A stretch of DNA of 64,000 bases from Eubacteriales bacterium (lineage in GTDB: Bacteria > Bacillota > Clostridia > Saccharofermentanales > Saccharofermentanaceae). Both the position numbers and the translations under genes were made by a program. Of the stretch, positions 14,917-63,996 are shown in pieces. Numbering within the stretch: the stretch's first letter is position 1; the number at the start of each line of letters is the position of its first letter. The stretch spans positions 130,527 to 194,526 of the forward strand of contig JBAWXZ010000005.1 of the NCBI GenBank assembly GCA_037143795.1. Direction: 5' to 3'. Below the pieces are notes generated by a model. That model saw only the letters and a program-made list of their open reading frames with translations, searched no databases and was not told the origin of the DNA.

Positions 14917-15007
14917 AGTTAAACAATTGTCGTCTGCAGTCGATGCGCCGCAAAGTAAAAATTGTTGCAAACCCCAGACAACAGGCAAAAATGAAACGGA
15001 GAAAATT

Positions 15008-15487: not shown

Positions 15488-15491
15488 TTTG

Positions 15492-15836: not shown

Positions 15837-15952
15837 CAGTAGGCATAATGTCTATGGTTAACTGTATCCAATAAATCTTGCAGCCACAGCTATAGATAAG
15901 TAAAACACAGCACGCGCGTTCAAGTTTCCTGTTCTCCAAAGCGATAATATGA

Positions 15953-41612: not shown

Positions 41613-41634
41613 AGTTTAAAAGGAGGCTTTTCAA

Positions 41635-43140: not shown

Positions 43141-43150
43141 GGAGACATAT

Positions 43151-44125: not shown

Positions 44126-44138
44126 CAAGGGGGACAGA

Positions 44139-45194: not shown

Positions 45195-45259
45195 GGCACT
45201 GCAGTGCTTTAACGATATGGAAGAACACAAAAAATGGAGAAAAAAAAGGAGTCAGGACT

Positions 45260-46342: not shown

Positions 46343-46370
46343 TAATAGAAACGGAAAGGAGCTGTTTGAT

Positions 46371-47138
46371 TTGAACAGTACCTCGGCGCGAACCTTACAA
46401 ATATTGAGTTTACTTAGTCAGGCTGATCAGCCTATGACGTTAACTCAAATCAGTGAAATGCTGAGCGCACCGGTAAGCAGCACCTGCAACATTATCAGCA
46501 CCATGCTGAAACTTGGATTTGTCAGGCTGAGTGACCCGAAGATGAAAACTTATACAATCGGAATTAAAGCATATGAAGCCGGGATTGCGTATATTAAAAA
46601 CACTAATTTTGTAGGCGTCGCAAAACCGTTTTTAGAAAAAATGTCCAGGGAATCAGAGACAACAACATTTCTGGGCGTTCAAAACGGTGCCCGGATCGTG
46701 TATCTGGACAAAGTTGAATCTTCCAAGTCAGTTCGTACAACAGCGGTCCTTGGTTCCTATAAGGGAATGTATTTTACCGGGCTGGGCAAAGCAATCCTCG
46801 CCAGTATGCCGGATAAAGCGGTTGAGGATATGTATTACGGATCCGTGTTCCAGGCATATACCGAAAACACGATCTGTGATATAGAGCGGTTAAAGGATGA
46901 CCTGCAGCAGACAAGGGAAAGGGGATATGCAATCGACGACCGCGAAGGCGAGATATCGCTATACTGCATTGCGGCTCCCGTCCGGAATCATGCAGGAAAA
47001 GTAATCGCAGCAGTGAGTATTGCCAGCTTTTATGACCTTCTGACGGAAGAAAGCCGTAAAAAGAACGCAGATATTCTGGTGAGCAATGCTGTTGAAATTT
47101 CAAGACTGCTTGGCTATTCAGGTACTTTGCTCTATTGA
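46371..47138 (+). CDS. IclR-family transcriptional regulator
   Basis: N-terminal wHTH (MTLTQISEMLSAPVSSTCNIISTMLKLGFV) and a C-terminal effector domain. Start uncertain: TTG 46371 with AAGGAG 10 nt upstream, or ATG 46332. Confidence 0.75.
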   Translation: MNSTSARTLQILSLLSQADQPMTLTQISEMLSAPVSSTCNIISTMLKLGFVRLSDPKMKTYTIGIKAYEAGIAYIKNTNFVGVAKPFLEKMSRESETTTFLGVQNGARIVYLDKVESSKSVRTTAVLGSYKGMYFTGLGKAILASMPDKAVEDMYYGSVFQAYTENTICDIERLKDDLQQTRERGYAIDDREGEISLYCIAAPVRNHAGKVIAAVSIASFYDLLTEESRKKNADILVSNAVEISRLLGYSGTLLY

Positions 47139-47266
47139 TTCCGCACGAGACCAACCAATCCCCTGATCTGTGTTTTTCATTTCAGATTGATTCGATACAT
47201 GAAAACAGAATACAATACAAGTAACGCAAATACGGCATCGATTCGTATATTCGAGAGGAGATTTTT

Positions 47267-47764
47267 ATGACATACCCAAGAGCGCTGTCCCATATTGGCT
47301 TATCTGTCCCCGATCTTGACAAGGCAGTTAAATTTTACACTGAGGTAATGGGCTGGTATATCATAATGACACCATCAGCCATTGAAAGAGATGATACCGA
47401 TATCGGAATTATGTGTGATGATGTCTTCGGAGACCAGTGGACGAAGTTTCGTATTGCCCATCTTTCGACAAGTAATGGTATTGGTGTGGAAATCTTTGAA
47501 TTCCCCAATAATATTCCTGTGGAACCTGAGTTCCGCTATTGGAAAACCGGTTTGTTTCATTTTTCCGTTCTGGATCCCGACCTGGAAGGCCTTGTCAAAA
47601 AAATTGTTGAGAATGGCGGCAAACAGCGTATGCCGGTCCGACATTACTATAATGGAGAGAAGCCTTACAGAATGTGCTACGTTGAAGATCCGTTCGGCAT
47701 TATCTTTGAAGTATATAGTCATAGTTATGAATTGACCTATTCATCCGGCGCCTATAACGACTAA
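47267..47764 (+). CDS. VOC-family protein (glyoxalase/bleomycin-resistance/dioxygenase fold)
   Basis: HIGLSVPDLDKAVKFYTEVMGW is the canonical VOC betaalphabetabetabeta start. Confidence 0.75.
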   Translation: MTYPRALSHIGLSVPDLDKAVKFYTEVMGWYIIMTPSAIERDDTDIGIMCDDVFGDQWTKFRIAHLSTSNGIGVEIFEFPNNIPVEPEFRYWKTGLFHFSVLDPDLEGLVKKIVENGGKQRMPVRHYYNGEKPYRMCYVEDPFGIIFEVYSHSYELTYSSGAYND

Positions 47765-47792
47765 AACGATTCAAAATTTGATCTGAGTTCTG

Positions 47793-47820
47793 CATCCCGG
47801 GCATTTCTATGCCCGGGATG
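47793..47820. terminator. Stem-loop (12-bp perfect stem) between the two transporter operons; possible terminator/attenuator
   Basis: CATCCCGGGCAT-ttct-ATGCCCGGGATG. No strong downstream T-tract. Confidence 0.4.
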
Positions 47821-47875
47821 ACGCAGACCGGGTATTCCTATGCCCTTTTAAGGGCAATATTTTGAGGTAACTTCT

Positions 47876-49390
47876 ATGGCATCTGAAGTTTTTTGGAAAA
47901 TTGATCACCTGTGTATGAGCTTCCCGGCAGTGAAAGCGCTTCAGGACATCTGTCTTGAAATCAATAAGGGTGAAATTCTTGGTCTGTTAGGTGAGAACGG
48001 AAGTGGAAAATCCACTTTGATAAAATGTCTTTCAGGTGTACACCAGCCGCAATCCGGGGAAATCATCATCAATGGCAAGCCGGTTAAAATATCCAACCCG
48101 CAGGAGGCTTGCCGGCTGGGTGTATCAACTGTATATCAGGAGTTTTCGCTCGTTCCTACTTTAAGTGTATATGAAAATGTTTTTCTCGGACAGCTGCACA
48201 TGAAAAAATCAGGGCTCGTTGACTGGCAGACTATGTACGGAAAAACCCGGGATATTCTGGATGCACTGGAGATTCATATCAGTCCATCCGCTATTGTAAG
48301 TACACTGTCGGTGGCTGAGCAGCAGCTTGTTGAAATTGCGAAGGGGTATAACACGTCCGGGAGCCTTTTCATCCTGGACGAGCCTACTACAGCGCTGTCC
48401 GAGCCGGAGGTAATCCGGCTGCATTCACTTCTTTCCAGTCTGAAAAAAGACGGGCATACAATCATCTACATATCACACCGGCTTGATGAGATGCTTACGA
48501 TCGTTGACCGGGTCGCGGTTCTGAAAAACGGTGTTCTTGCCGGCGTTATTCCCAAAGAACAATTATGTATTGACACAATTGTTCAACTGATGTCCGGCCG
48601 TGTTATTGCCGACCATTATCCAAAACAAAAAAATGCCCGGGATGAAGTGATTCTTAAAGTGGAAAATCTCAGGACAAAAAATGGTGTGAACGGTGTCAGC
48701 TTCGAAGTCAGGAAGGGTGAGGTTTTTGGCCTTGCAGGACTTTTAGGTTCAGGCCGTACGGAAATTGCACGGGCGCTGTTCGGCGTCGACAAATTATCAG
48801 ACGGGAGAATTATTTTCAAGGGTAAAGAGATCCATATCGATTCTCCCCAGAAGGCTATTGATTCCGGCCTGGCCTTTATAACGGAAAACAGAAAGACAGA
48901 CGGACTGTTTTTCAATTTTAACGGTATAAAAAATTCGACAACTGCAAAAATTAAAAAATTATTCCGCTCCCGGATTTTGAGGGTTATGGATCTTAAAAAA
49001 GAGAAAGAATCTTACCTCGAGAGCGTACGTAAATTGGAGATTGAGCCGCTTTCAGCAGTGAAGCTTGTCAGCTACCTTTCCGGTGGAAATCAGCAGAAAG
49101 TAGTTATCTCAAGATGGCTTTTTGCAGATGCTGACTTCTTCATTATGGACGAGCCGACACAGGGGATTGATGTAGGTGCCCGGCTTCAAGTCTATAACAT
49201 AATAAATGAACTTACTAAAATCGGAAAAAGCATCCTGCTGATTAGTTCGGATCATCTGGAACTGCTGTCAATGAGTGACAGGATTGCAACCATACGATCC
49301 GGAAAAATCACTCAGATTTCCAATGCACAGGATATGGATAAGAAATCCATTATGAGTGACGGACATTTACATGGAGAGGCAAAAATATGA
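47876..49390 (+). CDS. Sugar ABC transporter ATP-binding protein (tandem ABC domains)
   Basis: GENGSGKST Walker A, LSVAEQQLVEIAKG and LSGGNQQK signatures. 504 aa. Confidence 0.85.
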   Translation: MASEVFWKIDHLCMSFPAVKALQDICLEINKGEILGLLGENGSGKSTLIKCLSGVHQPQSGEIIINGKPVKISNPQEACRLGVSTVYQEFSLVPTLSVYENVFLGQLHMKKSGLVDWQTMYGKTRDILDALEIHISPSAIVSTLSVAEQQLVEIAKGYNTSGSLFILDEPTTALSEPEVIRLHSLLSSLKKDGHTIIYISHRLDEMLTIVDRVAVLKNGVLAGVIPKEQLCIDTIVQLMSGRVIADHYPKQKNARDEVILKVENLRTKNGVNGVSFEVRKGEVFGLAGLLGSGRTEIARALFGVDKLSDGRIIFKGKEIHIDSPQKAIDSGLAFITENRKTDGLFFNFNGIKNSTTAKIKKLFRSRILRVMDLKKEKESYLESVRKLEIEPLSAVKLVSYLSGGNQQKVVISRWLFADADFFIMDEPTQGIDVGARLQVYNIINELTKIGKSILLISSDHLELLSMSDRIATIRSGKITQISNAQDMDKKSIMSDGHLHGEAKI

Positions 49391-50382
49391 AACAGAAATC
49401 ACAAGCTAATTTGCTCGCGGACCAGAGCTTTATCGGGCCTCTTGCTGCCGCGGTTATAGTTGCCATTATTGTCGGATTCACTACGGATAAGTTCTGGGCC
49501 TTTAATAACCTGAACAATATTGCCCTGGCAGTCTCGATTACTGCACTGATAGCAATTGGTGCAACACTCGTAATATTTATTGGCGGCATCGATATTTCAT
49601 CGGGGTCCATGATTGCCCTGATAACTATGGCTATGGCAAATCTGATCAAGATGAACGGGTATCCCGTATGGACCGGAATTCTGCTTGCCATCGTGCTCGG
49701 AGGCGTTTTGGGTGCATGCAATGGTTTTCTCACAGCATATCTGCGTGTGCCCTCCTTTATTTCAACTTTGGCGGGTGCCAGTATTTTCAAAGGCTTTGCC
49801 TTTCTGCTGAACGGCGGCTCTCCGATCTTTTCTGTCGCACCTAACTTTGAATTTCTCTTTTACGGGAAATTATTCAATACAATACCCCTTCCATTTATTT
49901 ATGTAGCAGTATTTTATTTTATCTTTGCCGGTTTTATGAAGTATTCCAGACAGGGCCGTGAAATTTACGCAGTCGGCGGCAATGAAAGCGCTGCAAGACT
50001 ATCAGGAATAAATGTCAAGCGAGTCAAGCTTTTGACATTTGTGATCGCTGGAATCATGGCGGGATTTGCAGCTGTACTAATGGCCTCGCGTTTGAACTCA
50101 GGATCCCCAAATTACGGAGCCGGAATGGAGATGTCTGCAATTGCTGCTGCCGTTATCGGCGGAGCAAGCCTTGCCGGAGGCAGGGGGAGCATTATCAATA
50201 CGCTTCTTGGGGCGCTGACGATTGTCATTGTTCAAAACGGTCTCAATTTGAATGCTGTCAACACATCATTACAAAGTATTACACTTGGTTCCATTATTCT
50301 ATTTGCTGTTCTCCTTGATATGTGGAAAGTTGAATTTTCGCAAATTGCGAAAAAAGTTTTCAGAGCTCAAAAGCAACTTTAA
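49387..50382 (+). CDS. Sugar ABC transporter permease
   Basis: Polytopic RbsC-like. ATGA overlap with the upstream ATPase. Confidence 0.8.
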   Translation: MKQKSQANLLADQSFIGPLAAAVIVAIIVGFTTDKFWAFNNLNNIALAVSITALIAIGATLVIFIGGIDISSGSMIALITMAMANLIKMNGYPVWTGILLAIVLGGVLGACNGFLTAYLRVPSFISTLAGASIFKGFAFLLNGGSPIFSVAPNFEFLFYGKLFNTIPLPFIYVAVFYFIFAGFMKYSRQGREIYAVGGNESAARLSGINVKRVKLLTFVIAGIMAGFAAVLMASRLNSGSPNYGAGMEMSAIAAAVIGGASLAGGRGSIINTLLGALTIVIVQNGLNLNAVNTSLQSITLGSIILFAVLLDMWKVEFSQIAKKVFRAQKQL

Positions 50383-50464
50383 AGCAGCTTGATAAGCTCA
50401 TTCCAACACGGCTATATTTATGAATTGGTCATAAATATATAATTTAAAACGGAGGGAAAAAATC

Positions 50465-51616
50465 ATGAAAAAGATCAAGTTTCTCGCAGCGGTACTACTG
50501 AGCACAGTCTTCATCCTGTCGAACCTTGCCGGATGTTCAGCACAGACCGCAGCAACATCAGCAGAAAGTACAAAAGCACCCGCAGGTGTTACAACAGCCG
50601 CCCAGACAACGGATGCTGCAACAACAGCCGCCTCAACAACTGCTTCCATCCCTGGGATTACGTATGCCGGCCCTGTTGCAATTACAGCACAGGCGTCATT
50701 TGACAACCTGAAAAAAGACGGGAATTTTACAGTTATTTACATGCCGCCGGCCACTGAGTTCAATTATTACATGGCTATCGGTGCCGGTATTGAAGCACGG
50801 GCCAAGGAACTCGGAATCAGCTACTCCTTGCTTGCACCGCAGAGCGGAGCAGATATTAACGGACAGATGAGTATGCTGCAGGATGTAATCGGACGGGATG
50901 ACGTCAACATGATCATTCTTTCCACACATGATGAGAACGCTGCAGCCCCGCTTGTCAAGCAGGCTGTTGATAAGGGAATCGAGGTCATTATCGTAAACTC
51001 GGATATTCTGACTTTCCCGACACCGGTTCACGGCGTTGTAGGTTATGTACAGCGCAATGCGCAGAAAAGTATTGGAGAGTATGCTGTCAATCTCATGGCA
51101 GGTAAAGATGTTAAGGTTGGCATGATTCTTGGTCAGCCCGGATGGCACGCCACAGAGAGATCGGAAGGATTCCTTGAGGGAATAAAAGGAGCTTCGAATT
51201 TTGAAGTTGTTGCACAGCTTGACGGAAAATGGAATGTTGAGGGCGGTAACCAGGCTGCTACGGATATGCTCCAGGCGCATCCTGAAATCAATATGATCGT
51301 TGCCGGAAATGACTATGAAATTATGGGAGCACAGAAGGCCGCAGAAGCTTTAGGCCGGACCGATATCATTTTCCTTGGAAATGACGGCGATACTGCATGT
51401 CTTGAAGAAATCAATGACGGTACAATCACCGCGACTGCCAACACAACTCCTTTTGTAATGGGACAGATAGCCATTCAGGTTGCTGCTGACGGTTTGTCCG
51501 GGAAATTTACCGGAGGCTTTATTGAGACCCCCAGTGTTGTTACAGACAAAACAAATGCCATAGATTTTTTAAAGCTTCCTGACACACTCTTCCCTAAACC
51601 TTCGAAACAGTATTAA
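50465..51616 (+). CDS. Sugar ABC transporter substrate-binding lipoprotein
   Basis: Lipobox LAGC and a Thr/Ala-rich linker. PBP type I. Confidence 0.8.
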   Translation: MKKIKFLAAVLLSTVFILSNLAGCSAQTAATSAESTKAPAGVTTAAQTTDAATTAASTTASIPGITYAGPVAITAQASFDNLKKDGNFTVIYMPPATEFNYYMAIGAGIEARAKELGISYSLLAPQSGADINGQMSMLQDVIGRDDVNMIILSTHDENAAAPLVKQAVDKGIEVIIVNSDILTFPTPVHGVVGYVQRNAQKSIGEYAVNLMAGKDVKVGMILGQPGWHATERSEGFLEGIKGASNFEVVAQLDGKWNVEGGNQAATDMLQAHPEINMIVAGNDYEIMGAQKAAEALGRTDIIFLGNDGDTACLEEINDGTITATANTTPFVMGQIAIQVAADGLSGKFTGGFIETPSVVTDKTNAIDFLKLPDTLFPKPSKQY

Positions 51617-51700
51617 TAATTGTATAAAACAAGCCAAATTTCCTGCGGGCATTTCAAAGTGCCCGCAGGGAAGGTTTCAAAACCAGAATAGGAGCTCATT

Positions 51701-52723
51701 ATGGGTAAAGTTGTATGTTTCGGTGAAATTATGGGGCGCCTGAACCCTCCTGGGTATCTTAAAGTAGTACAGGCACATTCATTCGAATTATCTTTTGCCG
51801 GCGGCGAGGCAAATGTTGCTGTCTCCGTTGCGAATTTCGGAGCGAAAGCATCCTTTGTAACAAAGCTGCCGAAAAATGATCTCGCAAAAAATGCCCTTCG
51901 TATTTTAAAGGGATACGATGTGGATGTTTCGGATATTGTATATGGCGGCGAACGGCTTGGTATGTATTATGTTGAAAAGGGGGCCTCGCAGCGTCCTTCT
52001 AAAATCATATATGACCGCAAATATTCTTCTATTTCCACCGCTTCCGGAACGGACTTTGATTGGGAAAAAATATTTGCAGATGCGGACTGGTTTCATTTTA
52101 CCGGCATCACTCCGGCATTGTCGGATGAGTTGGCCCGGATTTGCAGCGATGCCTGCACAGAGGCGAAAAAACGCGGTATCTTTATCAGCTGCGATTTGAA
52201 TTACCGTAAGAATTTATGGTCCCCAGAAAAAGCTGGAAAGGTAATGGGCGGCTTAATGCCGTTTGTAGATCTAATTATTGCAAATGAAGAAGATGCAGAT
52301 ATGGTGTTTGGCATCAAAGCGTCCCATACGGATGTTACATCGGCATCCCTCAGTCACGCAGGTTATGAAGATGTTGCAGCCCAATTATGCAGGCGGTTCG
52401 GAAGCGATTATGTTGCGATTACACTTCGCGGGAGTATTTCAGCGAGCGACAACCGTTGGAGCGGAATGCTGTATTCCGACGGACAAAGTAATTTTTCAAG
52501 GGAGTACAATATCCATATTGTAGATCGTGTCGGCGGCGGTGATTCATTTGCCGGAGCACTTATATTTGCACTGCATGAAAAATATGAACCGAAAATGGCT
52601 ATTGAGTTTGCAGCAGCTGCATCCTGTTTGAAACATGCAATCGAATTTGATTTTAATCAGGTTACTGTTTCAGATGTGGAAACCCTGCTGGACGGTGACG
52701 GATCAGGTCGTGTGCAGCGATAA
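51701..52723 (+). CDS. kdgK: PfkB-family sugar kinase, 2-dehydro-3-deoxygluconokinase-like
   Basis: N-terminal VVCFGEIMGRL with GG and a C-terminal DRVGGGDSFAGAL (PfkB signature 2). Confidence 0.8.
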   Translation: MGKVVCFGEIMGRLNPPGYLKVVQAHSFELSFAGGEANVAVSVANFGAKASFVTKLPKNDLAKNALRILKGYDVDVSDIVYGGERLGMYYVEKGASQRPSKIIYDRKYSSISTASGTDFDWEKIFADADWFHFTGITPALSDELARICSDACTEAKKRGIFISCDLNYRKNLWSPEKAGKVMGGLMPFVDLIIANEEDADMVFGIKASHTDVTSASLSHAGYEDVAAQLCRRFGSDYVAITLRGSISASDNRWSGMLYSDGQSNFSREYNIHIVDRVGGGDSFAGALIFALHEKYEPKMAIEFAAAASCLKHAIEFDFNQVTVSDVETLLDGDGSGRVQR

Positions 52724-53266: not shown

Positions 53267-54349
53267 ATGAATAACCGGATTACTTTATGTAATGTAAAAA
53301 AAAGACTTGAAGAACAGGCATTTGATTATGAGGTCCTGATGCTCCAGGACGATTTTTCGATATTGTGCTCGGGAAGAGGCGGAAGAATCTTTGGCCCCTT
53401 TGAAAGTGAAGATTCGGAAAGTGTCTTTTGGGTGAATAAAGCTTTCCGATATTCCGAAGCTTTTGCCGGATTTATCCGTGATGAAGAATGGAATATGGGT
53501 GGAGACAGAATCTGGATTGCACCGGAGATACCTTTTTTCGTAAAGGACAGGGCAGCCGGATTTGATAGCTTTATTGTGCAAAAGCATCTTGATCCTGGAA
53601 ATTATGATTTGTGCAGAAGAGCTGATTCCATAATTCTGGATCAGGATGTTATTCTCGATGTTTATCAGAATGCGTGCACAAAAAAAGAATTTCATCTTAA
53701 AAAGACAATTTGTAAAAGTGATAATCCTCTTCGGAATTTGCCGGTATTTGAAGAATTGAGCAGCAAAGTCAAGTTCTGCGGATTTGAGCAGATAATTGAA
53801 TTAGCTGATAATTCCGAAGATTGTGACCTTTACCTTGAGAACTGGATACTTACTCAGGTGAATACACCAGGCATTCTGATTGTTCCCTTTCTGGGAAGGA
53901 TGGAATTTGTTGATTATTTTGAGCCAGTTGAGAAACAGGATTTTTATATCCGGGATAATTATATGGAGATTAATGTTACCGGTGACAGACGGTATAAGCT
54001 TGGATTCAAATCAGTTATTTCAACAGGCAGATCAGGATATTTAAGTAAGCTGTCTGATGGCCGGAGTTATCTGATTATCAGGTCATTCATTAATAATCCA
54101 TCCTCCCTGTATTGCTGCGAACCATTTGATAAACCGGGTCAAACCGGTTGTTCTTCATTTATATATAATGATTCAGGTGCCCTGGGCGGATATGCGGAAA
54201 TGGAAAATCTCGGAATAACAATATCCGGGGATACAGGGAAAAAATGTTCAGCCGATGTTGTTTATAACTGGCTGTATATAGGGGAGGAGACAGCATTAAA
54301 ACAGATAGCGAATACACTTTTGGAAATAAAATTAATCAAATACAATTGA
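53267..54349 (+). CDS. Hypothetical protein (360 aa), last gene of the sugar-acid operon
   Basis: Intact ORF with RBS. No motif recognised. Lower GC than its neighbours. Confidence 0.45.
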   Translation: MNNRITLCNVKKRLEEQAFDYEVLMLQDDFSILCSGRGGRIFGPFESEDSESVFWVNKAFRYSEAFAGFIRDEEWNMGGDRIWIAPEIPFFVKDRAAGFDSFIVQKHLDPGNYDLCRRADSIILDQDVILDVYQNACTKKEFHLKKTICKSDNPLRNLPVFEELSSKVKFCGFEQIIELADNSEDCDLYLENWILTQVNTPGILIVPFLGRMEFVDYFEPVEKQDFYIRDNYMEINVTGDRRYKLGFKSVISTGRSGYLSKLSDGRSYLIIRSFINNPSSLYCCEPFDKPGQTGCSSFIYNDSGALGGYAEMENLGITISGDTGKKCSADVVYNWLYIGEETALKQIANTLLEIKLIKYN

Positions 54350-54638
54350 CAAGTAAACATCTAGGTATGATAATAAAATCATCCTAGATCCGTGATATTT
54401 TTGACTTAATTAAGGAATAGCAGCACATATTAAATTGCCGTAAGATAGCAGAACATATATAAGCCGCCTGTGTCAGCAGAGCATAGTTGCGTTAAAAACA
54501 GATTCAGAATGCAGTCCATCAGTATTATTTTATGACTTAGCCTATTAGTCTTTTTTGCTTTCTCATTTTTGTCATGCGCTTTTTTTCAAATGCCGATTCA
54601 ACCGATCCAAATGCGGTTCCTGAATCTTCGATGAAAGG

Positions 54639-56342
54639 GTGACAGATATGGACTTGAAATACAATAAATGTACGCATCTCCGGGATTTACGCGCACTAAT
54701 TAATTATTCAGCCGGCAAATATGGCGATAAACCGGCTTTTCGGGAGTTTGACGCCAACCATGAAGTGCTGGAATATTCTTTCAATCAACTTAAAACCGAT
54801 ACGGAGGCTTTGGGCGCAAAACTTGTTGCTGATAACATGGCGGGCCGGCATTTTGCCCTGCTGGGCGAAAGCTCATACGGCTATGTCGTCAGTTACCTGG
54901 CTATGGTGAATTGGGTTGGCGTCATTGTTCCTATTGACAGGGAACTGACTGTCGAAGATATCATTAACCTGCTTAATAAAAGTGACGCTGAAGGCATATT
55001 TTTCTCCAATACATTCGCATCCGTTATTCCGGATATTCTTGCCGCATGTCCGGATATTTCATGCACGGTCAATATCAGTTCAACCGCTCCCAGCTTGAAG
55101 TACCATTCGCTGCATGATTTTATCGAAGCCGGACAATCCCTTATAGATCAGGGATTTACTTCTTATCAGGACACGGATCTGGATGTTGATAAGCTCTGCA
55201 CAATTCTGTTTACATCAGGAACGACAGGCGCTAATAAGGGCGTAATGCTCTGCCACAGGAATCTGACAACCTGCCTGTTTGCGGCCATGTCACTTTTTGT
55301 TTTGCCGGAAACCAGTTTTTCCGTACTCCCGATCAACCATTCATATGAATTTAATATTCATGTCCTTGGCAGCATATACGGGGGAGCTGCCCTGTGTTTC
55401 AACGATTCCATCAAGCACGTCAAAGAGAATCTGCAGATTTTTAAGCCGCAGATGAGCCTTATGGTGCCCATGATTGTAGAGGGTCTTTATAAGAATATCT
55501 GGAAGGAGGCAGTAAAAAATAATCTGGATAAACACTTGAAATATGGCATCTGGTACAGCAATTTGATCCGCAAAATTGGAATTGATCAGAGAAGACTGTT
55601 TTTCAATCCGATCCACATAAACCTCGGAGGTAATCTGAAGATGATCGTCAGCGGCGGGGCCCCCCTGAACCAGGAACTGGTAAAAGGCTTTGATGATCTG
55701 GGTATAAGCGTGTATAACGGATACGGCATCACCGAATGCTCACCTCTTATATCATCAAACAGTCCCCTGTACAATAAGCCGGGAAGTGTAGGCGTAATAG
55801 TCCCGGGCTGCACGGTCAGAATCGGAGACAAAAATCCGGAAGGCATCGGCGAAATTCAGGTCAAAGGCGATAACGTCATGCTTGGATACTACAAGGATGA
55901 GGATGCGACCAGAAGATCGTTTACTGAGGACGGGTGGTTTAAGACAGGAGACCTTGGATATCAGAATAAAAAGGGGGTTTTATTCATTACAGGACGCCAG
56001 AAGAACTTGATTATCCTTCCCAACGGGAAAAATGTTCATCCGGAAGAACTCGAAGAACACCTGTTCAAACGCATTAATTATATCCGTGAAGCGGTCGTAT
56101 ATGCCCAGGTGGACGAGAAGGGAAACGACAGTATTATTACGGTGATTGCATACCTCGACCAGCAGTTCACAGATGCGATGGGTATGAGCAGGGCAAAGGA
56201 AATGTTTGAAGAAGATGTAAACAGAGTGAACAGGCATCTGGCAGCATATAAGAGAATAACTCAGGCACTGGTTCGTGAGACTGAGTTCGAAAAGACAACA
56301 ACAAAGAAAATCAAGAGAAATGCTATTAACAGGGGGGTGTAA
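54639..56342 (+). CDS. AMP-dependent synthetase/ligase (fatty-acyl-AMP ligase or acyl-ACP synthetase type)
   Basis: AMP-binding core FTSGTTGANKGVMLCHRNL and YGITE...; then GWFKTGDLG and the PNGKNVHPEELEE C-terminal subdomain. 567 aa. Confidence 0.8.
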   Translation: MTDMDLKYNKCTHLRDLRALINYSAGKYGDKPAFREFDANHEVLEYSFNQLKTDTEALGAKLVADNMAGRHFALLGESSYGYVVSYLAMVNWVGVIVPIDRELTVEDIINLLNKSDAEGIFFSNTFASVIPDILAACPDISCTVNISSTAPSLKYHSLHDFIEAGQSLIDQGFTSYQDTDLDVDKLCTILFTSGTTGANKGVMLCHRNLTTCLFAAMSLFVLPETSFSVLPINHSYEFNIHVLGSIYGGAALCFNDSIKHVKENLQIFKPQMSLMVPMIVEGLYKNIWKEAVKNNLDKHLKYGIWYSNLIRKIGIDQRRLFFNPIHINLGGNLKMIVSGGAPLNQELVKGFDDLGISVYNGYGITECSPLISSNSPLYNKPGSVGVIVPGCTVRIGDKNPEGIGEIQVKGDNVMLGYYKDEDATRRSFTEDGWFKTGDLGYQNKKGVLFITGRQKNLIILPNGKNVHPEELEEHLFKRINYIREAVVYAQVDEKGNDSIITVIAYLDQQFTDAMGMSRAKEMFEEDVNRVNRHLAAYKRITQALVRETEFEKTTTKKIKRNAINRGV

Positions 56343-56346
56343 AAAA

Positions 56347-56577
56347 ATGCTTAACATCATTGTAAAGGATCTGCTGGAGTATGTGGATGTCGAGGAAAGC
56401 ACAATTACGGAAAAAACGAAACCCGCTTCCGACCTGCACCTGAATTCGTATGATTATATCTGTCTGGTAGGCAAACTTGAGGATGATCTCGGCATTACGA
56501 TTTCGGAAAGCGATCTGAGAGGTTTTACTACGCTGGGCGATCTGGACGAATATGTTCAAAAGAAAATGCTCCAATGA
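56347..56577 (+). CDS. Free-standing acyl carrier protein
   Basis: 76 aa. LHLNSYDYICL places Ser in the D/N-S-(L/Y)-D phosphopantetheine-attachment context. The ORF track starts earlier in the same frame, but ATG 56347 follows an AGGGGGG RBS. Confidence 0.7.
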   Translation: MLNIIVKDLLEYVDVEESTITEKTKPASDLHLNSYDYICLVGKLEDDLGITISESDLRGFTTLGDLDEYVQKKMLQ

Positions 56578-57152
56578 TATACATTGTCTGTTCAAAGGGT
56601 GATCGTTTTTTGACGGCACAGGAGCAATCGGATATGTCGCAGCACCTGCTCAGGACAGGGATGTCCGGAGAACATGGAATTGATGTCGTTAATGACGATA
56701 TCATCAGAAATGCATGGGGCAAACCGTTTTTAAAAGATCACCCTGATATTTATTTCAACGTAAGCCATTGTACAGGCGGCGTAGCATTGTCCATATCGTC
56801 ATTCCGAACAGGTATTGATATCGAAAAGGTTCGTTCATTTTCCGAAATTACAGCCAGGAAGATCCTTGCAGATAACGAACTGGAAACCATAAAGAACTCA
56901 AAGTACCCTGAATTGGATTTTTTTCGTTTCTGGACACTTAAGGAAAGCTACTTAAAAGCGCTGGGGATAGGTATATCCTATCCTCTGAATAAAATCAATT
57001 TTACAATCGATCAGAATTCAAATATTACAACGGATTTGAAGGGCTGTATGTTTGGCCTGTTTGAAAACGAACGGAATTTTGTCGCCGCCGTATGTTACCT
57101 GAACCGCAATGATCGCTTGAAGGAAACACTCATATACCGTTTACTGCCTTAA
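56574..57152 (+). CDS. 4'-phosphopantetheinyl transferase (Sfp type)
   Basis: FNVSHCTGGVALS and FWTLKESYLKALGIGI match the PPTase motifs (F/W)(N/S)xSH and WxxKEAxxK. ATGA-coupled to the ACP gene. Confidence 0.8.
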   Translation: MIYIVCSKGDRFLTAQEQSDMSQHLLRTGMSGEHGIDVVNDDIIRNAWGKPFLKDHPDIYFNVSHCTGGVALSISSFRTGIDIEKVRSFSEITARKILADNELETIKNSKYPELDFFRFWTLKESYLKALGIGISYPLNKINFTIDQNSNITTDLKGCMFGLFENERNFVAAVCYLNRNDRLKETLIYRLLP

Positions 57153-57165
57153 GTAGGTGAAATGA

Positions 57166-57870
57166 ATGGAAGACTATATCAGATTCGATCATGTGAAAAA
57201 GATTTACAAAATGGGTGAATATGACATTGAAGCCCTTGCAGGAGTATCTTTTTCCATTAATAAGGGCGAATTTGTCATTATTGCCGGTGCCAGCGGCGCA
57301 GGTAAAAGCACCGTGCTGAATATTCTTGGCGGAATGGACAGCCTGACATCGGGCAAGATTTTTGTGGACAACCGCGAAATAAGCAAATTCAAGCCAAAGG
57401 AACTGATAGAGTACAGAAGGCATGATGTCGGATTTGTTTTTCAGTTCTATAATCTGGTGCAAAATCTTACGGCCAAAGAAAATATAGAGCTGGCATCCCA
57501 GATTTGTAAAAATCCGATGGACATTAATGAAGTCATTGAGGGTGTCGGCTTAAGTGACAGAAAGAAGAATTTTCCTTCACAGCTTTCCGGAGGCGAACAG
57601 CAGAGAGTGGCTATCGCCAGGGCCCTGGCTAAAAATCCCAAGCTTATGCTCTGCGACGAACCCACGGGCGCACTTGACTATAATACCGGAAAGTCCATAT
57701 TGAAGCTGCTTCAGAATACGAGCCGGAATAATGGGATGACGGTAGTCGTTATTACGCATAACCTTGCGCTGACGCCGATGGGCGATCAGGTAATCCGTCT
57801 CAAGAGCGGACTCATTGACTCCATTGTCTATAATCCGGACCCTCAAAGTATTGATGAAATCGAGTGGTAG
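57166..57870 (+). CDS. ABC transporter ATP-binding protein (MacB/LolD/FtsE-like)
   Basis: [24 protein letters not shown], and a D-loop/H-motif (VVVITHN). Confidence 0.85.
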
Positions 57871-57873
57871 CAT

Positions 57874-60800
57874 ATGAAATACTCACTTCTCAAGGATATA
57901 TTCAAAGAGATTGTGAAGAGTCCCAACCGCTTTCTTTCCATATTTTTGATTGTTGGACTTGGAACGGCTTTTTTTGCCGGACTAAAGGCAGCAGCCCCGG
58001 ATATGAAAAATACGGCTGATCTTTATTATGACAATTATAATATGATGGACATCAGGGTACTCTCGACGATGGGTCTTACAGATGAAGACATCGAAGCTAT
58101 GAAGCTTGTTGCGGGAGTCGAGACGGTTCAGCCATCTTACTTTGCGGATGTCGTTACAACCATCCATTCCAACGAGTGTGTTTTTCGTATTCATGCTCTT
58201 CCTGCTGCTGCGATCTCCGCCGGTTCTGAGGACTATCTGAACAAACCCAAAATTGTCGAAGGAAGGCTTCCGGCAAAGTCCGGTGAATGTATTATTGAAA
58301 AGTCAAATGCCGTCGACCTCGGCCTTCAAATCGGTGATACCATGACTGTGGCATCCGGAAAGAAAGAGGATCTGACGAATGTTCTTACTACGGATACTTT
58401 TACCATTGTCGGTAAAGCGGTATCCCCTTATTACCTGACCTATGATAAAGACTCTTCCGACATTGGCAGCGGAAAAGTCAATTTCTTTATGATGATCCTG
58501 TCAACTGATTTCAGCTACCCGGTCTATACAGAAGCCCTGGTAACCGTCAAAGGTGCCAAGGCACTCAACTCATACAGCCCGGAGTATCGTAAGCTGGTCG
58601 AAAAAACATTAAACCAGCTGGATAATGTCGTGGCTGAGCGCTCTGAAGACCGTCTGGCCGAACTTAAAAGTATGGCGACAGACCAGCTGAATGAAAAGAA
58701 GGCAGAGCTTAAGTTAAAAGAAGACGATTTCAATACGCAAATCGCAGATGGGCAGGTAAAATTAGATGATGCCCGGGACAAGCTGGTAGAGGCGCAGGCG
58801 ACACTTGACAGCGAAAAGAAAAACTATGAGATACAGATTGCAGCGGGCCAAAAACAAATCGATGACGGGGAAGCGGAACTAACCCAGGGTAAGATTGATT
58901 ATAATAACGCTGTTATTAAGTACGATCTTGCTCAGCAACAGTACGGCAGCCTTATTTCATCCCTTGATGAAGTTACATCCGCACTCAATCAGGTTGATTC
59001 GGACTCCCAGGTGCAGATCAATGAGATAAACATCAGGCTTGCAACGGACCCGACACTTACCGATCAGCAGCGTGCGGATTTCATGGCACAGAAGGAAACA
59101 CTGCTCGAGAATCAGGCGTCCGCTCAATCCGGGCTGGATCAACTGGACGATCTTAACAGGTCCTCCCAGGCGACCATGAAGGATGCAAAAACCCAGCTCG
59201 ACGATGCGAAGGCCAAACTGGATGCTTCACAGGTAAAGCTTGACCAGGCAAAAGCAGATTTGAACACAGCAAAACAAGAATCTGCCGTCAAATTTGCAGA
59301 TGCTGAAAAACAGATCGCTGACGGTACGGTTGAATATGATACGGCGAAGAAAGATTTTGACACCAAAAAGGCGGACGGAGAAACGCAGATTCAAGACGGA
59401 AAAGAGCAGGTGATCCGGGCGGAGAACCAGATTGAACTGCTATCCAAACCCAATTACTATGTGCTGGATAGAAATAAACTTTACAGTTATGCCGACTATG
59501 CATCTACAGCGGACAGAATGGATGCCATCGCCAAGATCTTCCCTGTATTTTTCTTCTTTGTGGCTGTTCTTGTCTGCCTGACAACCATGACGAGGATGGT
59601 CGATGAACAGCGGGGGACCATTGGGACCTTCAAGGCACTTGGATACACCAAGGTTGAGATTGTATATAAATATGTCAATTATGCGGCATTAGCGAGTGCC
59701 GCAGGCGGAGTGCTGGGTGTAATTGCCGGGATAAATATCTTTCCAAAGCTTATTTTTGATTCATGGTCGATGATGTATTCGCTGCCGCCCATGCAGGCTA
59801 TACCCCAGATACCGCTGATGGTCTTAACTGTAATAGCCGGCATACTAATTACCACGGTCTCGTCCTATGCTGCCTGCAATCAGGAACTCACGGTAACACC
59901 GGCGCTTCTGATGAGGCCGAAAGCACCGAAGGCAGGAAAAACCATCGTAATGGAAAAAATTAATTTTATATGGAATCACCTGAGTTTCAGCCAAAAGGTA
60001 ACGGCCAGAAACATTTTCCGGTATAAGAAAAGATTTTTCATGACGATCATAGGCATAGCCGGGTGCTCCGCACTCCTTGTTGCCGGTTTCGGGCTGAGCA
60101 ACTCTATCGGCCAGATTGTTGAAAAGCAATTTCACCAGATATTTACATACAATTTGAGCATGCGGTTTACTCCGACAGCGACCGATGACGAGAAAGAAGC
60201 TGTTGTACAAAAACTAAGTCAGATTCCTGAAATAAAGTCCTCACTGAAAGCAACGGAGATTAATGCAAAAATACAAAGTAACGGAGAGGAAATAGCCATG
60301 ACTTTAATCTGTCCGGACAACAGCGCTGACTTTTCAAATTACATATCCCTTCAGGACAGAACCTCGCAGAAGAAAATGATGCTGCCTGTGAGCGGACTGA
60401 TTATTACCGAAAAATTATCCAAGGAACTCGGTGTCGGGGTCGGCGATTCGGTCACGGTATATAATGCCGACGAAGCAGTCAAAAAGCTGGAAATTGCCGG
60501 AATAACGGAGAATTATATTTTTCACTATGGATATATCAGCCGCGAGTATTATAAGGAAATTTTCCGGTTTGACCCGGAATTCAATAGTATGCTGATTAAA
60601 TTGAATCAGCCTTCCAAGGATGTTGAGACGGCGCTGGGCAGTGAACTGATTGCCATGGACCAGGTAGCATCGGTTGCTTATTATTCTGATGTGGCCGTTA
60701 AATTTCAGGACACTATTAAAAGCCTGGATGCCATTGTATTGGCTATCATTGGAAGCGCCGGGCTTCTGGCTTTCGTCGTGCTTTATAATCTTACGAACAT

Positions 60801-61125
60801 CAACCTGAGCGAGCGTATTCGTGAGATTGCAACCATAAAAGTGCTTGGATTCTATAACAGGGAGGTTGCTTCCTACGTATACAGGGAGAACATCATTCTG
60901 TCCCTGATCGGTACGGCCGCGGGTTTAGGGTTAGGCATATACCTGCATAGAATTATCATGTCATCCATTGAACAGAACGGCATCATGTTCGGCAATTATA
61001 TAGCCGGTAATAGCTTCCTGTACGCCTTTGCCATTACAATGGCATTCAGCATGCTGGTTAATATTGTCATGTACAGGAGATTAAAGAATATTCCCATGGT
61101 CGAATCACTGAAAACTATTGAATAG
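57874..61125 (+). CDS. FtsX-family ABC permease with duplicated 4-TM FtsX modules and a large coiled-coil extracytoplasmic domain (MacB-like exporter)
   Basis: 1083 aa. TM clusters at ~aa 20-40, ~540-700 and ~940-1083. A long Gln/Asp/Ala/Lys-rich coiled-coil region (QLDDAKAKLDASQVKLDQAKADLNTAKQE) lies between them. Confidence 0.8.
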   Translation: MKYSLLKDIFKEIVKSPNRFLSIFLIVGLGTAFFAGLKAAAPDMKNTADLYYDNYNMMDIRVLSTMGLTDEDIEAMKLVAGVETVQPSYFADVVTTIHSNECVFRIHALPAAAISAGSEDYLNKPKIVEGRLPAKSGECIIEKSNAVDLGLQIGDTMTVASGKKEDLTNVLTTDTFTIVGKAVSPYYLTYDKDSSDIGSGKVNFFMMILSTDFSYPVYTEALVTVKGAKALNSYSPEYRKLVEKTLNQLDNVVAERSEDRLAELKSMATDQLNEKKAELKLKEDDFNTQIADGQVKLDDARDKLVEAQATLDSEKKNYEIQIAAGQKQIDDGEAELTQGKIDYNNAVIKYDLAQQQYGSLISSLDEVTSALNQVDSDSQVQINEINIRLATDPTLTDQQRADFMAQKETLLENQASAQSGLDQLDDLNRSSQATMKDAKTQLDDAKAKLDASQVKLDQAKADLNTAKQESAVKFADAEKQIADGTVEYDTAKKDFDTKKADGETQIQDGKEQVIRAENQIELLSKPNYYVLDRNKLYSYADYASTADRMDAIAKIFPVFFFFVAVLVCLTTMTRMVDEQRGTIGTFKALGYTKVEIVYKYVNYAALASAAGGVLGVIAGINIFPKLIFDSWSMMYSLPPMQAIPQIPLMVLTVIAGILITTVSSYAACNQELTVTPALLMRPKAPKAGKTIVMEKINFIWNHLSFSQKVTARNIFRYKKRFFMTIIGIAGCSALLVAGFGLSNSIGQIVEKQFHQIFTYNLSMRFTPTATDDEKEAVVQKLSQIPEIKSSLKATEINAKIQSNGEEIAMTLICPDNSADFSNYISLQDRTSQKKMMLPVSGLIITEKLSKELGVGVGDSVTVYNADEAVKKLEIAGITENYIFHYGYISREYYKEIFRFDPEFNSMLIKLNQPSKDVETALGSELIAMDQVASVAYYSDVAVKFQDTIKSLDAIVLAIIGSAGLLAFVVLYNLTNINLSERIREIATIKVLGFYNREVASYVYRENIILSLIGTAAGLGLGIYLHRIIMSSIEQNGIMFGNYIAGNSFLYAFAITMAFSMLVNIVMYRRLKNIPMVESLKTIE

Positions 61126-61171
61126 AAAAGAACAGCAGATGAAAAGCACGGCTCAGGCAGGAGGTAAAAGA

Positions 61172-62548
61172 ATGGAAAGCAGAAAGTTATACCCTTTAAC
61201 ACCTTCACAAAAACTTATTTTTCTGGCATGGCAATACACGATACACAAACAGGTTCCGAATATTCCCACATCATGCTTTGTCGATGATGACCTTGACCTT
61301 GCTGTTTTAAAGAATGCGGCCGAAGAAGCTGTTAAACGAAATGACGCATTCGCAATCCGGATTACCAAGCAAGGCAAAGAGAAAATGCAGTACTTCTCAT
61401 ACAGAAGTGTTCTTGCGCTGGAGATGATTGACTTCACCGGTAAAAACACAAAGGATATGGAAGAGTTTTTTTATAAAATCGGTTCGACAAGGATGCCGTT
61501 ATATGATAAACCGCTTGCTAAAATTTACATTGTAAAATCTCCGGATGGGAAAGGCGGCGTGTTTTCCTGCATTTCACATCTGATTATGGACTCCTGGGCA
61601 ATCAGCATGTTTTATAAAGATATTTTTGAAGTGTATTTTGCACTGAAAGACAATGAACCTATTCCCAAGGCGCTGCCTGATTATGAGTCTGTGCTTCAGA
61701 AGGAGATTGCCTACACCTCGTCTGAAAAATATAAAAAGGATTATGCATTCTGGGAGCAGGAGCTATCCGGGCCTAAGCCGATATTTACCCATGTGAACGG
61801 ATCCATCGTCCTTGAGAAGCAGCGTGAAAAGAAGAAAGATCCGCAGCTTCGGTTCGGAAACAGTTTTTTTATCAGGACGACGGCTGCCCATGTGGTTCGT
61901 ATGATTGAAAAAGAGGATGTAGATAAAATGAAGGCATTCTGTCTTGAAAATGGTATTCCAACTATGCAGGTGCTATTTTTGCTGGGAATCAGAAATTATC
62001 TTGCCAAGGTCAACGGCAGGGAAAAGGACGTCAGCATCAATTCTGTTGTAGCACGCCGGGGTACCATTGATGAGAAGCTGACGGGCGGCACACGTGTTCA
62101 CCCGCTTCCGTTCCGGACAATCTTTGAAGAAGATGTTACATTTATGGAAATGCTGAAAATTATATTAGAGAAGCAAAACATACTGTATAGGCATGCCGAC
62201 TTTGACCCGATGGAAGCATTTAAAATCATGCACAAAAACTATGATTTTCCGCCGCAGAATACCTACATTACACTGCATCTGACATTTCAGCCCGTACCCC
62301 TGGAAGCCAAAAACGGAGCCAAAGTGAGAACAAAATGGTACTGCAACGGAACGGCTGCTTCAAATATAGGCGTATCAATCATGGACGGGGACGGTACCGG
62401 GGCACTTAGATGCTACTACGAGTATCACGATAAAATGATAGAGCCGGAAACCCTCGACAAGACCCATAACTATATGAAAAACGTCATTCTCGCAGGAATC
62501 GGGAATCCGCACTTAACACTCAAAGAACTGCTGGATTTACCGGTATAA
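61172..62548 (+). CDS. Free-standing condensation-domain protein (NRPS C-domain / CoA-dependent acyltransferase superfamily), paralog 1
   Basis: C1-like LYPLTPSQKLIFLAWQY, and a variant catalytic motif CISHLIMDSWAISMF (cf. HHxxxDG) ~150 aa in. 458 aa. GGAGG RBS. The ORF track starts at 61118. Confidence 0.7.
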   Translation: MESRKLYPLTPSQKLIFLAWQYTIHKQVPNIPTSCFVDDDLDLAVLKNAAEEAVKRNDAFAIRITKQGKEKMQYFSYRSVLALEMIDFTGKNTKDMEEFFYKIGSTRMPLYDKPLAKIYIVKSPDGKGGVFSCISHLIMDSWAISMFYKDIFEVYFALKDNEPIPKALPDYESVLQKEIAYTSSEKYKKDYAFWEQELSGPKPIFTHVNGSIVLEKQREKKKDPQLRFGNSFFIRTTAAHVVRMIEKEDVDKMKAFCLENGIPTMQVLFLLGIRNYLAKVNGREKDVSINSVVARRGTIDEKLTGGTRVHPLPFRTIFEEDVTFMEMLKIILEKQNILYRHADFDPMEAFKIMHKNYDFPPQNTYITLHLTFQPVPLEAKNGAKVRTKWYCNGTAASNIGVSIMDGDGTGALRCYYEYHDKMIEPETLDKTHNYMKNVILAGIGNPHLTLKELLDLPV

Positions 62549-62613
62549 GATAAATTCTGCTTTCCCACAGGAACACTAAGCGGCAAACAAAATGAACGGA
62601 TGAGGAGAAGAAT

Positions 62614-63996
62614 ATGGAGGAACATACATATTACCCGTTATCACCGGCTCAGCTTCTGAACTTCATGAGCTGGAAATACACTTTTCACAAACAGATCATG
62701 AATATACCGACTTCTTTCCTGATTGAGAAGCAGCTGGATCTTGGTGTTTTAAAGAAGGCTGTTGAAGAAGCGGTTCAAAGGAACGATTCGTTTGGCATCC
62801 GCATTGTAAAGGACGGCAAAGAAACCAGGCAATATTTCACCGACAGGAAATTGCTGCTCCTCGAAACAAAAGATTTCAGCGGAAAGACCGTTGAAGAAAT
62901 GAACAATTTTTTCCACAGAATCGGGGAAAAAAAGATACCTTTATACGAACAGCCGCTCGCTAAAGTTTATATTATCCGATCGCCGGAGGGATTTTGCGGA
63001 ATATATTCCTGTATCTGCCATCTTATGATGGACACCTGGGCGATCAGCATGTTCTATAAGGATATTATGGCTATTTATCATACTCTTACGGAAAATGCAC
63101 CTATGCCGGCTCCCATCAGAAGCTGTGAATCCGTAATTCGGAAAGAAATCGAATATAAAGCATCGCCTCAATACGAAAAGGGTCTGGAATTCTGGCGTGA
63201 AGAGGTTAAAGGTGACGGAACGCTGCCGACTTTCACACATGTCAATGGGCAGGGGATGCTGGAAAGCTACCGCAAATTGATCAGAAAACCGGATTATCCG
63301 TTTGCCCGGACCTTTTTTATGCGGACGACTGCCAGACATGAAGTTCTTCAGGTCGATAAAGACGATGTCGACAGGATGAAGAATTATTGCCTTGAAAATA
63401 ATATTCCAACCATGCAGCTGCTGTTTTTCCTTGGGCTGCGTACCTATCTTTCCCGGGTTAACAACCGGGCAAAAGATGTCAGTATTACCGATGTTGTTGC
63501 ACGGCGCGGGACACTCGAGGAGAAGCTGTCCGGAGGGACCAGACCGCAGGGGCTTTTCTGCAGGACGTATATGGAAGAAGACACTTCTTTTGCCGCTGCC
63601 CTTGATTATCTGATGCAAAAGCATAATTCACTCTACCGTCATGCAGATACTTTCACAATGGATGTTCTTGATATAGTCTATTCGACATACGGCATGAAAT
63701 CGTATGAGGGTTACAGCACTACATTATTTACATTCCAGCCGATTCCGCTTGATTTTGGCAGCGGAATAAAAAGTCATTCGGAGTGGTACTGCAACGGGGC
63801 GGCTGCATGCAGCCTCTATATTATGGTCATGGACGGCGAAGAGGAGGGCTCGCTGCGGTGTTATTACGAATATATGGACAAGATCATTAAAGTTGCAACA
63901 TTAAGAACATGCCATAATTACATGCTTAATGTTATCAGGGCCGGCATCGCGAATCCGTCAATAAAACTGAAGGAACTATTGGAACTTCCCCTTTAA
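62614..63996 (+). CDS. Free-standing condensation-domain protein, paralog 2
   Basis: YPLSPAQLLNFMSWKY and CICHLMMDTWAISMF, ~55% identical to paralog 1 by eye. 460 aa. GAGGAG RBS. Confidence 0.7.
   Translation: MEEHTYYPLSPAQLLNFMSWKYTFHKQIMNIPTSFLIEKQLDLGVLKKAVEEAVQRNDSFGIRIVKDGKETRQYFTDRKLLLLETKDFSGKTVEEMNNFFHRIGEKKIPLYEQPLAKVYIIRSPEGFCGIYSCICHLMMDTWAISMFYKDIMAIYHTLTENAPMPAPIRSCESVIRKEIEYKASPQYEKGLEFWREEVKGDGTLPTFTHVNGQGMLESYRKLIRKPDYPFARTFFMRTTARHEVLQVDKDDVDRMKNYCLENNIPTMQLLFFLGLRTYLSRVNNRAKDVSITDVVARRGTLEEKLSGGTRPQGLFCRTYMEEDTSFAAALDYLMQKHNSLYRHADTFTMDVLDIVYSTYGMKSYEGYSTTLFTFQPIPLDFGSGIKSHSEWYCNGAAACSLYIMVMDGEEEGSLRCYYEYMDKIIKVATLRTCHNYMLNVIRAGIANPSIKLKELLELPL

Follow-up and report, generated by a model that had tools for sequence, protein, structure and literature searches.

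Two paralogous genes at the end of a bacterial operon encode condensation (C) domain enzymes with an unusual active-site motif, which raises the question of whether each has its own substrate and whether the two act in sequence or in parallel. The genes lie in a 64,000-nucleotide stretch of DNA from a Eubacteriales bacterium (GenBank assembly GCA_037143795.1, contig JBAWXZ010000005.1, positions 130,527 to 194,526 of the forward strand; hereafter the window). C1 (458 amino acids) occupies 61172..62548 and C2 (460 amino acids) 62614..63996, both on the + strand. An initial annotation had described them as diverged tandem paralogs with a non-canonical motif and had suggested two specificities acting in sequence or in parallel, and so two product families. 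We assign both proteins to a family that makes fatty acid amides (FAAs). On balance, although with modest confidence, we favor the reading that C1 and C2 would both be catalytically active and work in parallel as FAA-type amide synthases, drawing on one acyl–acyl carrier protein (ACP) donor and using different amine acceptors, which would yield two product series.

The reading frames of C1 and C2 are intact, and independent gene calls on the source contig returned the same boundaries. As annotated, the genes are separated by a 65-bp intergenic gap and each has its own ribosome-binding site: the Shine-Dalgarno sequence of C1 is GGAGG (61160-61164, 7 nucleotides 5′ of the ATG) and that of C2 is GAGGAG (62602-62607, 6 nucleotides 5′ of the ATG). 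The paralogy was borne out by BLASTP, while the identity, put at about 55% by eye, was corrected to 52% (235/450, E = 0). In a Pfam profile search, PF00668 (Condensation) covered both proteins end to end, with residues 5-453/455 on profile positions 3-444 of 456. The E-values were 9e-37 for C1 and 4e-32 for C2, with scores of 127 and 112 bits against a gathering cutoff of 30.6. No other Pfam family matched either protein at E ≤ 0.01. The WS/DGAT (PF03007/PF06974), PapA-specific, and BAHD/Tri101 (PF02458) identities, some of which the annotation had marked for comparison, were therefore rejected, PF00668 being the sole match. Both proteins fall within the size range of free-standing FAA-type C domains (~300-520 amino acids) and carry no fused adenylation or carrier domain.

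The motif strings reported earlier, CISHLIMDSWAI and CICHLMMDTWAI, were confirmed at residues 133-144. C1 carries S135-H136-L-I-M-D140-S-W (SHLIMDSW, encoded at 61574-61597), and C2 carries C135-H136-L-M-M-D140-T-W (CHLMMDTW, 63016-63039). When aligned by phmmer with the C domains of PvdL, "ishlimds" was paired with "ihhlvvdg" and "shlimdsw" with "hhilidaw". Because of this pairing, H136 is assigned to the second, catalytic histidine and D140 to the aspartate of HHxxxDG, while serine or cysteine aligns at the position of the first histidine and serine or threonine in place of the glycine. The annotation had made these same assignments and had let them depend on the block aligning with HHxxxDG, which it does. 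In contrast, its view of the following tryptophan as a deviation had to be abandoned, as tryptophan follows 110 of 153 HHxxxDG motifs (72%) in 33 megasynthases from our hit list and is thus part of the canonical pattern. H136 and D140 are invariant in an alignment of 25 sequences and present in 118 of 118 full-length homologs.

The predicted structure of C1 agreed with the profile match. An AlphaFold2 (AF2) model (predicted local distance difference test, 89; predicted template modeling score, 0.86) has the two-lobed, V-shaped chloramphenicol acetyltransferase-like fold. Its best solved match was the CDA starter C domain, at a template modeling (TM) score of 0.81, and its top 50 PDB matches were all C domains at TM scores of 0.7-0.8. 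The fold library (PDB entries to April 2026) did not contain the OaaC structure discussed below, and hence only canonical C domains appeared among the fold matches.

The closest solved or characterized relative of C1 is chain A of PDB entry 12KH (E = 1.9e-61; next match, 7e-11), which is OaaC of Coprococcus eutactus, a free-standing condensation enzyme (PMC13310621). OaaC is reported to form FAAs in vitro from acyl-ACP and free amines (PMC13310621) and is described as strict for the amine while relaxed for the acyl chain (PMC13310621, citing original reconstitution). FAA synthesis by the stand-alone condensation enzymes of gut Clostridia goes back to Chang et al. 2021, as cited in PMC13310621, where the FAA clade is placed nearest to starter C domains. 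C1 and OaaC are 30% identical over their full length. We built a neighbor-joining (NJ) tree (300 bootstraps, capped distances) from C1, C2, and their relatives, together with the OaaC group, 30 other stand-alone representatives, and C domains excised from megasynthases. The window proteins, the OaaC group, and the 30 representatives formed one clade with 100% support. Support of 99% joined this clade to the N-terminal, starter-type C domains as its sister group, to the exclusion of internal C domains, in what is a distance tree with outgroups taken from the hit list rather than from a curated subtype set. The tree served as a stand-in for the phylogeny the annotation had proposed. Thus, the 12KH match and the tree place C1 and C2, by homology, in the known FAA-type stand-alone family, and they do not constitute a new enzyme class.

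The motif of this family is more variable than published. FAA condensation domains were described by the non-canonical motif (D/H)HxxxDS, with serine (42%), alanine (36%), or glycine (17%) at position 7 (PMC13310621). C1 and C2 depart from it, with serine (C1) or cysteine (C2) at position 1 and serine (C1) or threonine (C2) at position 7. Among 118 full-length close homologs plus C1 and C2, position 1 was S in 71 sequences, N in 36, C in 11, and A in 2, with H or D in none of the 120; position 7 was S in 105, T in 8, F in 4, and A in 3, and position 8 was W in 118. The OaaC group is uniform (DHRLxDSC). Across the wider stand-alone family, sampled as 50%-identity representatives, position 1 is almost any small or polar residue, with serine the commonest, and only the histidine and the aspartate are constant. 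Matches at E ≤ 1e-30 comprise 274 representative clusters. Hence, the idea that S/C-H is unique to this pair was dropped. The free variation at position 1 makes the non-canonical motif a family trait, and the literal (D/H)HxxxDS pattern, as judged by these alignments, fits the OaaC subgroup but not the whole family.

The genetic context of C1 and C2 likewise resembles that of OaaC. They are the last two genes of a seven-gene operon, with gaps of at most 65 nucleotides and one 4-nucleotide overlap, one conserved promoter-like site, and no space for further genes. The first gene (54648..56342, +) encodes an AMP-binding adenylating enzyme of the fatty-acid type, identified by Pfam PF00501 and PF23562, the gene call, and its homology to OaaA, to which it is 35% identical over 538 amino acids; among NCBIfam models it matched long-chain fatty-acid ligases best, none of them reaching its cutoff. 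It is followed by an ACP of 76 amino acids (56347..56577, +; Pfam PP-binding and NCBIfam ACP models, below cutoffs), the sole carrier protein of the operon. Its predicted phosphopantetheine site is Ser34, in LNSYD, and it is 28% identical to OaaACP, with the serine aligned. An Sfp/HetI-type 4′-phosphopantetheinyl transferase (PPTase; 56574..57152, +; PF01648, E = 6.5e-16, with weak NCBIfam HetI and AusB matches) overlaps the ACP gene by 4 nucleotides. Next come an ATP-binding cassette (ABC) transporter ATPase (57166..57870, +; PF00005, E = 6e-36) and a MacB/FtsX-type permease of 1083 amino acids (57874..61125, +; two FtsX and two MacB_PCD matches in Pfam), the predicted product exporter, which contains two FtsX modules and, outside the cytoplasm, a long coiled-coil insert.

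In both systems, therefore, a free-standing C domain of about 460 amino acids is encoded next to an ACP and a fatty-acid adenylating enzyme that is likewise free-standing, and each of the three components is homologous between them. C1, like OaaC, retains the second histidine and the aspartate, has serine in place of glycine, and falls in the same fully supported clade beside starter C domains. They differ in that C1 and C2 belong to a subclade separate from OaaC, with S, N, C, or A rather than the aspartate of the OaaC group at position 1. The OaaC cluster has the order C-T-A and no transporter, whereas the window cassette runs adenylating enzyme-ACP-PPTase-ABC ATPase-permease-C, with a dedicated MacB-type exporter (predicted) and, across its relatives, one to six C genes. 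The hosts differ as well: the OaaC group is found in Lachnospiraceae, and the cassette in Bacillota and Actinomycetota known mostly from metagenome-assembled genomes (MAGs), such as Proteiniclasticum, Oscillospiraceae, and Propionibacteriaceae. Another known arrangement, that of the ebf/ecf FAA clusters, combines a PPTase with a lipid-transfer-like protein and a hydrolase (PMC10871352).

We infer the chemistry, a free amine as the acceptor, a difference in specificity, and export of the product; the mechanism is modeled by homology on OaaA, OaaACP, and OaaC. The PPTase would convert the ACP to its holo form, and the adenylating enzyme would activate a fatty acid and load it on the ACP. C1 or C2 would then bind the acyl-ACP in its donor tunnel, where His136 would position and deprotonate the amine of a freely diffusing small molecule. 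Attack of this amine on the thioester would release an N-acyl amide, and the adjacent ABC ATPase and MacB/FtsX permease would export the lipid-like product.

VibH, the vibriobactin amide synthase (PDB 1L5A), is also a stand-alone C domain of the same fold and joins an acyl group held on a carrier to a small, free amine, as proposed here for C1 and C2. It is, however, a distant match (E = 8e-6) with a canonical motif; it belongs to a siderophore pathway and takes an aryl donor from an aryl carrier protein. Starter (lipoinitiation) C domains of lipopeptide nonribosomal peptide synthetases, such as CDA-C1 (4JN3) and RzmA (7C1H), include the best solved-fold match, form the sister clade, and use a fatty-acyl donor. 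Unlike C1 and C2, they are always fused in a megasynthase, accept a carrier-bound aminoacyl group, and carry HHxxxDG. C1 and C2 are stand-alone in an operon with one ACP, in which neither Pfam nor the gene calls revealed an amino-acid adenylation domain or a second carrier. The overall logic of the operon recurs in mycobacterial FadD-Pks-PapA-MmpL loci, which combine a fatty-acyl-AMP ligase, a carrier-bound donor, stand-alone C-like acyltransferase paralogs (PapA1/PapA2, PapA5), and a dedicated exporter in one locus. PapA enzymes, however, O-acylate sugars or diols, and their exporter is an RND-type (resistance-nodulation-division) MmpL; our analysis found no specific sequence relationship between them and C1 or C2.

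Two other cassettes, L003 and L007, each have a pair of C genes; in NJ trees the first of these clusters with C1 and the second with C2 (L-numbers denote the loci compared, L001 being the window's own locus). Because such orthologous pairs occur in other genomes, the duplication is old; it predates the split of the three lineages. The C2-type CHLMMDTW lineage has at least eight members, and one cassette (L034) contains a C2-like gene only. Separate duplications of younger age (65-79% identity) took place in L005, L011/L012, and L020. C genes have been duplicated independently at least four times. Compared with their L003 orthologs, C1 and C2 showed ratios of nonsynonymous to synonymous substitution rates (dN/dS) of 0.060 and 0.089, in the same range as other operon genes; both copies are under purifying selection. 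Both also keep all 40 positions that are invariant in the 25-sequence subfamily alignment. Between C1 and C2 synonymous sites are saturated, and dS could not be estimated. A recent redundant duplication with one decaying copy, to which only the tandem position points, is contradicted by the low dN/dS (below 0.1 for both) and the orthologous pairs. Given also the 52% identity, the saturated synonymous sites, and the intact frames and catalytic residues, we regard it as highly improbable.

The same observations bear on the possibility that C1 and C2 form a heterodimer or that one copy chiefly regulates or scaffolds the other. Such an arrangement would echo the OaaC homodimer, a stable assembly that occludes the ACP site until holo- or acyl-ACP arrives and whose dissociation appears to gate catalysis (PMC13310621); the C1 and C2 genes are adjacent and probably co-expressed. 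We nonetheless consider it improbable. Both copies retain His136, Asp140, and the other subfamily-invariant residues and are under strong purifying selection, and cassettes with a single C gene are the rule.

This last point emerged from a cassette survey that combined a scan of species-representative genomes with contig look-ups. The same block and gene order were found in about 20 further genomes of Bacillota and Actinomycetota, including Oscillospiraceae, Mageeibacillus, Proteiniclasticum, Clostridium folliculivorans, Propionibacteriaceae, and Dermatophilaceae; in three of them the PPTase was absent or undetected. The ABC ATPase is the best-conserved gene, at 68-97% identity in almost all sister cassettes (55%, in a partial match, in L021), and the permease sits between the PPTase and the C genes in nearly every one. 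The cassettes usually contain one C gene, as in Proteiniclasticum ruminis DSM 24773 and Clostridium folliculivorans D1-1, with two in five lineages and six in L005. Since one C gene suffices in most cassettes, the additional copies look like add-ons.

These numbers also speak to whether C1 and C2 might act one after the other, with one paralog acylating a di- or polyamine or a two-nucleophile amino acid and the other adding a second chain to give a multiply acylated lipid. Such a route has a precedent in Mycobacterium tuberculosis, in which PapA2 and then PapA1, both stand-alone C-like acyltransferases, contribute to the synthesis of sulfolipid-1. The route would suit two co-transcribed genes sharing a single donor system as well as the existence of arrays of up to six C genes. 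Yet a basic pathway complete with one C gene in most cassettes, a cassette with the C2-like enzyme only (L034), and at least four independent duplications, which fit diversification better than a fixed two-step route, make sequential action unlikely. Parallel action of C1 and C2 is the more economical reading because the operon has a single adenylating enzyme and ACP, OaaC is selective for its amine, and single-C cassettes are the norm.

If C1 and C2 work in parallel, a difference in the acceptor is more likely than a difference in the donor, because the operon has one adenylating enzyme and one ACP. The alternative is that the paralogs differ in the chain length or saturation of the donor, or that one of them forms esters, for instance by O-acylating a sugar or hydroxy acid. 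Starter C domains, which lie closest in fold and tree, tune chain length through the donor tunnel (PMC13310621, citing RzmA), and in one Oscillospiraceae MAG related C genes lie beside glycosyltransferases and a GDSL lipase. Ester formation is also within the reach of C-domain relatives, as exemplified by PapA5. We consider this alternative quite unlikely: the one family member characterized so far selects strictly among amines but tolerates varied acyl chains, donor choice with one adenylating enzyme and ACP would be made largely upstream of the C step, and no sequence feature specifically points to O-acylation.

Where, then, do the C1 and C2 lineages differ? Allowing at most one exception per clade, fixed differences were found at eight positions. 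Three of the eight lie within the catalytic motif (S135C, I138M, and S141T), a count that comes from small clades (13 and 8 sequences) and was made after the motif had already been flagged. Three further differences lie at residues 221-227, which may correspond to an insertion described as OaaC-specific (PMC13310621). The clustering of diagnostic differences in the motif is suggestive. Two specificities are thus favored indirectly, by an ancient and retained duplication, purifying selection, motif-located differences, and the predominance of single-C cassettes. The domain identities, motif alignment, operon structure, cassette conservation, duplication age, purifying selection, and motif-located differences were read directly from the data.

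Several points weigh against parallel amide synthesis with different amines. The small clades behind the motif count are one. C1 is only 30% identical to the characterized enzyme, the chemistry of the ABC-linked subfamily is assigned by homology, and the proposed export role of the ABC genes follows from guilt by association. Enzymes of the C-domain superfamily can form esters too. The cassette contains no amine-supplying gene. Finally, all six C genes of L005 share the motif SHLIMDSW, and motif change is therefore not the general route of divergence. These six genes lie in tandem after the adenylating enzyme-ACP-PPTase-ABC-permease block (L005:6865-16276; GCA_966193725.1, CBIGXC010000037.1), are 65-79% identical to one another, and form the largest array seen.

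More broadly, and only tentatively, we propose that the cassettes represent an undescribed, exporter-coupled FAA branch of Bacillota and Actinomycetota, built as adenylating enzyme-ACP-PPTase-MacB-type ABC pump-C(n). The number of C genes (one, two, or six, plus orphan copies in one genome) would set the repertoire of secreted N-acyl amides made from one donor, and the C1 and C2 lineages, whose main distinguishing residues flank the histidine and the aspartate, would recognize different acceptor classes. Neither the enzyme family nor its odd motif is new. What appears to be undescribed is the predicted exporter-coupled cassette, its spread beyond gut Clostridia into Actinomycetota, and the recurrent multiplication of C genes; a literature search, which did not cover Chang et al. 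2021, found no description of an ABC-linked or multi-C FAA pathway.

Bacterial fatty acid amides act as ligands of human receptors. To our knowledge, work on their biosynthetic enzymes has so far been confined to a narrow clade of gut bacteria whose clusters each hold one C gene. The present cassette is set apart by a chemistry tied to a dedicated pump (predicted), its occurrence in quite different bacteria (32% to 68% GC), and the repeated duplication of the amide enzyme. If each copy has its own amine, the arrays would be natural sets of related amide synthases with distinct specificities, which could help to map the acceptor pocket and serve biocatalysis; otherwise, the pair would still be a clean test case for the divergence of stand-alone C domains. 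The system is thus a lead for work on natural products and enzyme specificity, unsurprising to a specialist and with no long-standing question at stake.

The base composition of the cassettes bears on their spread. Cassette guanine-plus-cytosine (GC) content ranges from 32% to 68% and stays within about 4 percentage points of the flanks. The Actinomycetota cassettes (L018, L019, L021, L024, and L031) have 65-68% GC, 3-4 points below their flanks, and the Clostridium folliculivorans cassette (L017) has the same gene order at 32% GC. The same cassette and order in high-GC Actinomycetota and a 32%-GC Clostridium therefore imply an old transfer between phyla and subsequent amelioration.

The permease insert, in the first extracytoplasmic region, spans about 270 residues (about 250-520) with coiled-coil-like repeats and a weak SMC match at 258-521. 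Such an insert is atypical of FtsX/MacB permeases, and it occurs across the whole cassette family.

The promoter-like site upstream of the operon (54346..54374, +) consists of TTGACA, a 17-nucleotide spacer, and GATAAT. It agrees with the consensus at 11 of 12 positions, and no better site occurs between 53 and 64 kb; L003 and L007 have the conserved hexamers at corresponding places. Between it and the first gene lies a leader of about 270 nucleotides (54375-54647). A riboswitch or T-box in this leader, considered as a clue to the amine, was rejected, as there was no Rfam match at E ≤ 1. The 3′ part of the leader, with a T-run (CGCTTTTTTTC) in it, is shared by the window and L003 but not by L007, and the leader could be an unrecognized regulatory one.

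Upstream of the operon, the genes serve sugar transport and catabolism. They differ in the closest relative, and the cassette is therefore taken to begin at the adenylating gene. The region 40614-52723 contains a pair of adjacent sugar-type ABC uptake systems that are paralogs of each other (ATPase, BPD_transp_2 permease, and periplasmic binding protein). Interspersed among their genes are those for a 2-keto-3-deoxy-galactonokinase-like protein, a zinc alcohol dehydrogenase, and a PfkB kinase; the region serves ordinary carbohydrate catabolism, unrelated to C1 and C2. Downstream, the contig ends about 2 kb past C2. The next gene, convergent to C2 from about window position 64025, encodes an Abhydrolase_3/BD-FAE esterase (L001:11412-12380, − strand). 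Homologs 60-63% identical to it adjoin C genes in two distant lineages, co-directional in L020 and divergent in L025. The esterase may supply free fatty acids.

The Oscillospiraceae MAG mentioned above (SRP263991_co4_306) carries at least six related C genes scattered over four contigs, at L006:9902-11377, L008:10001-11377 and 14972-16444, L009:128-3143, and L033:9983-11380. None of them stands beside an intact adenylating enzyme-ACP-ABC block, and AMP-binding-like open reading frames were found only near L006 and L009. Among the products of neighboring genes are glycosyltransferases, a GDSL lipase, an aldehyde dehydrogenase, and an S-layer-homology protein. This setting might point to acylation of the cell envelope.

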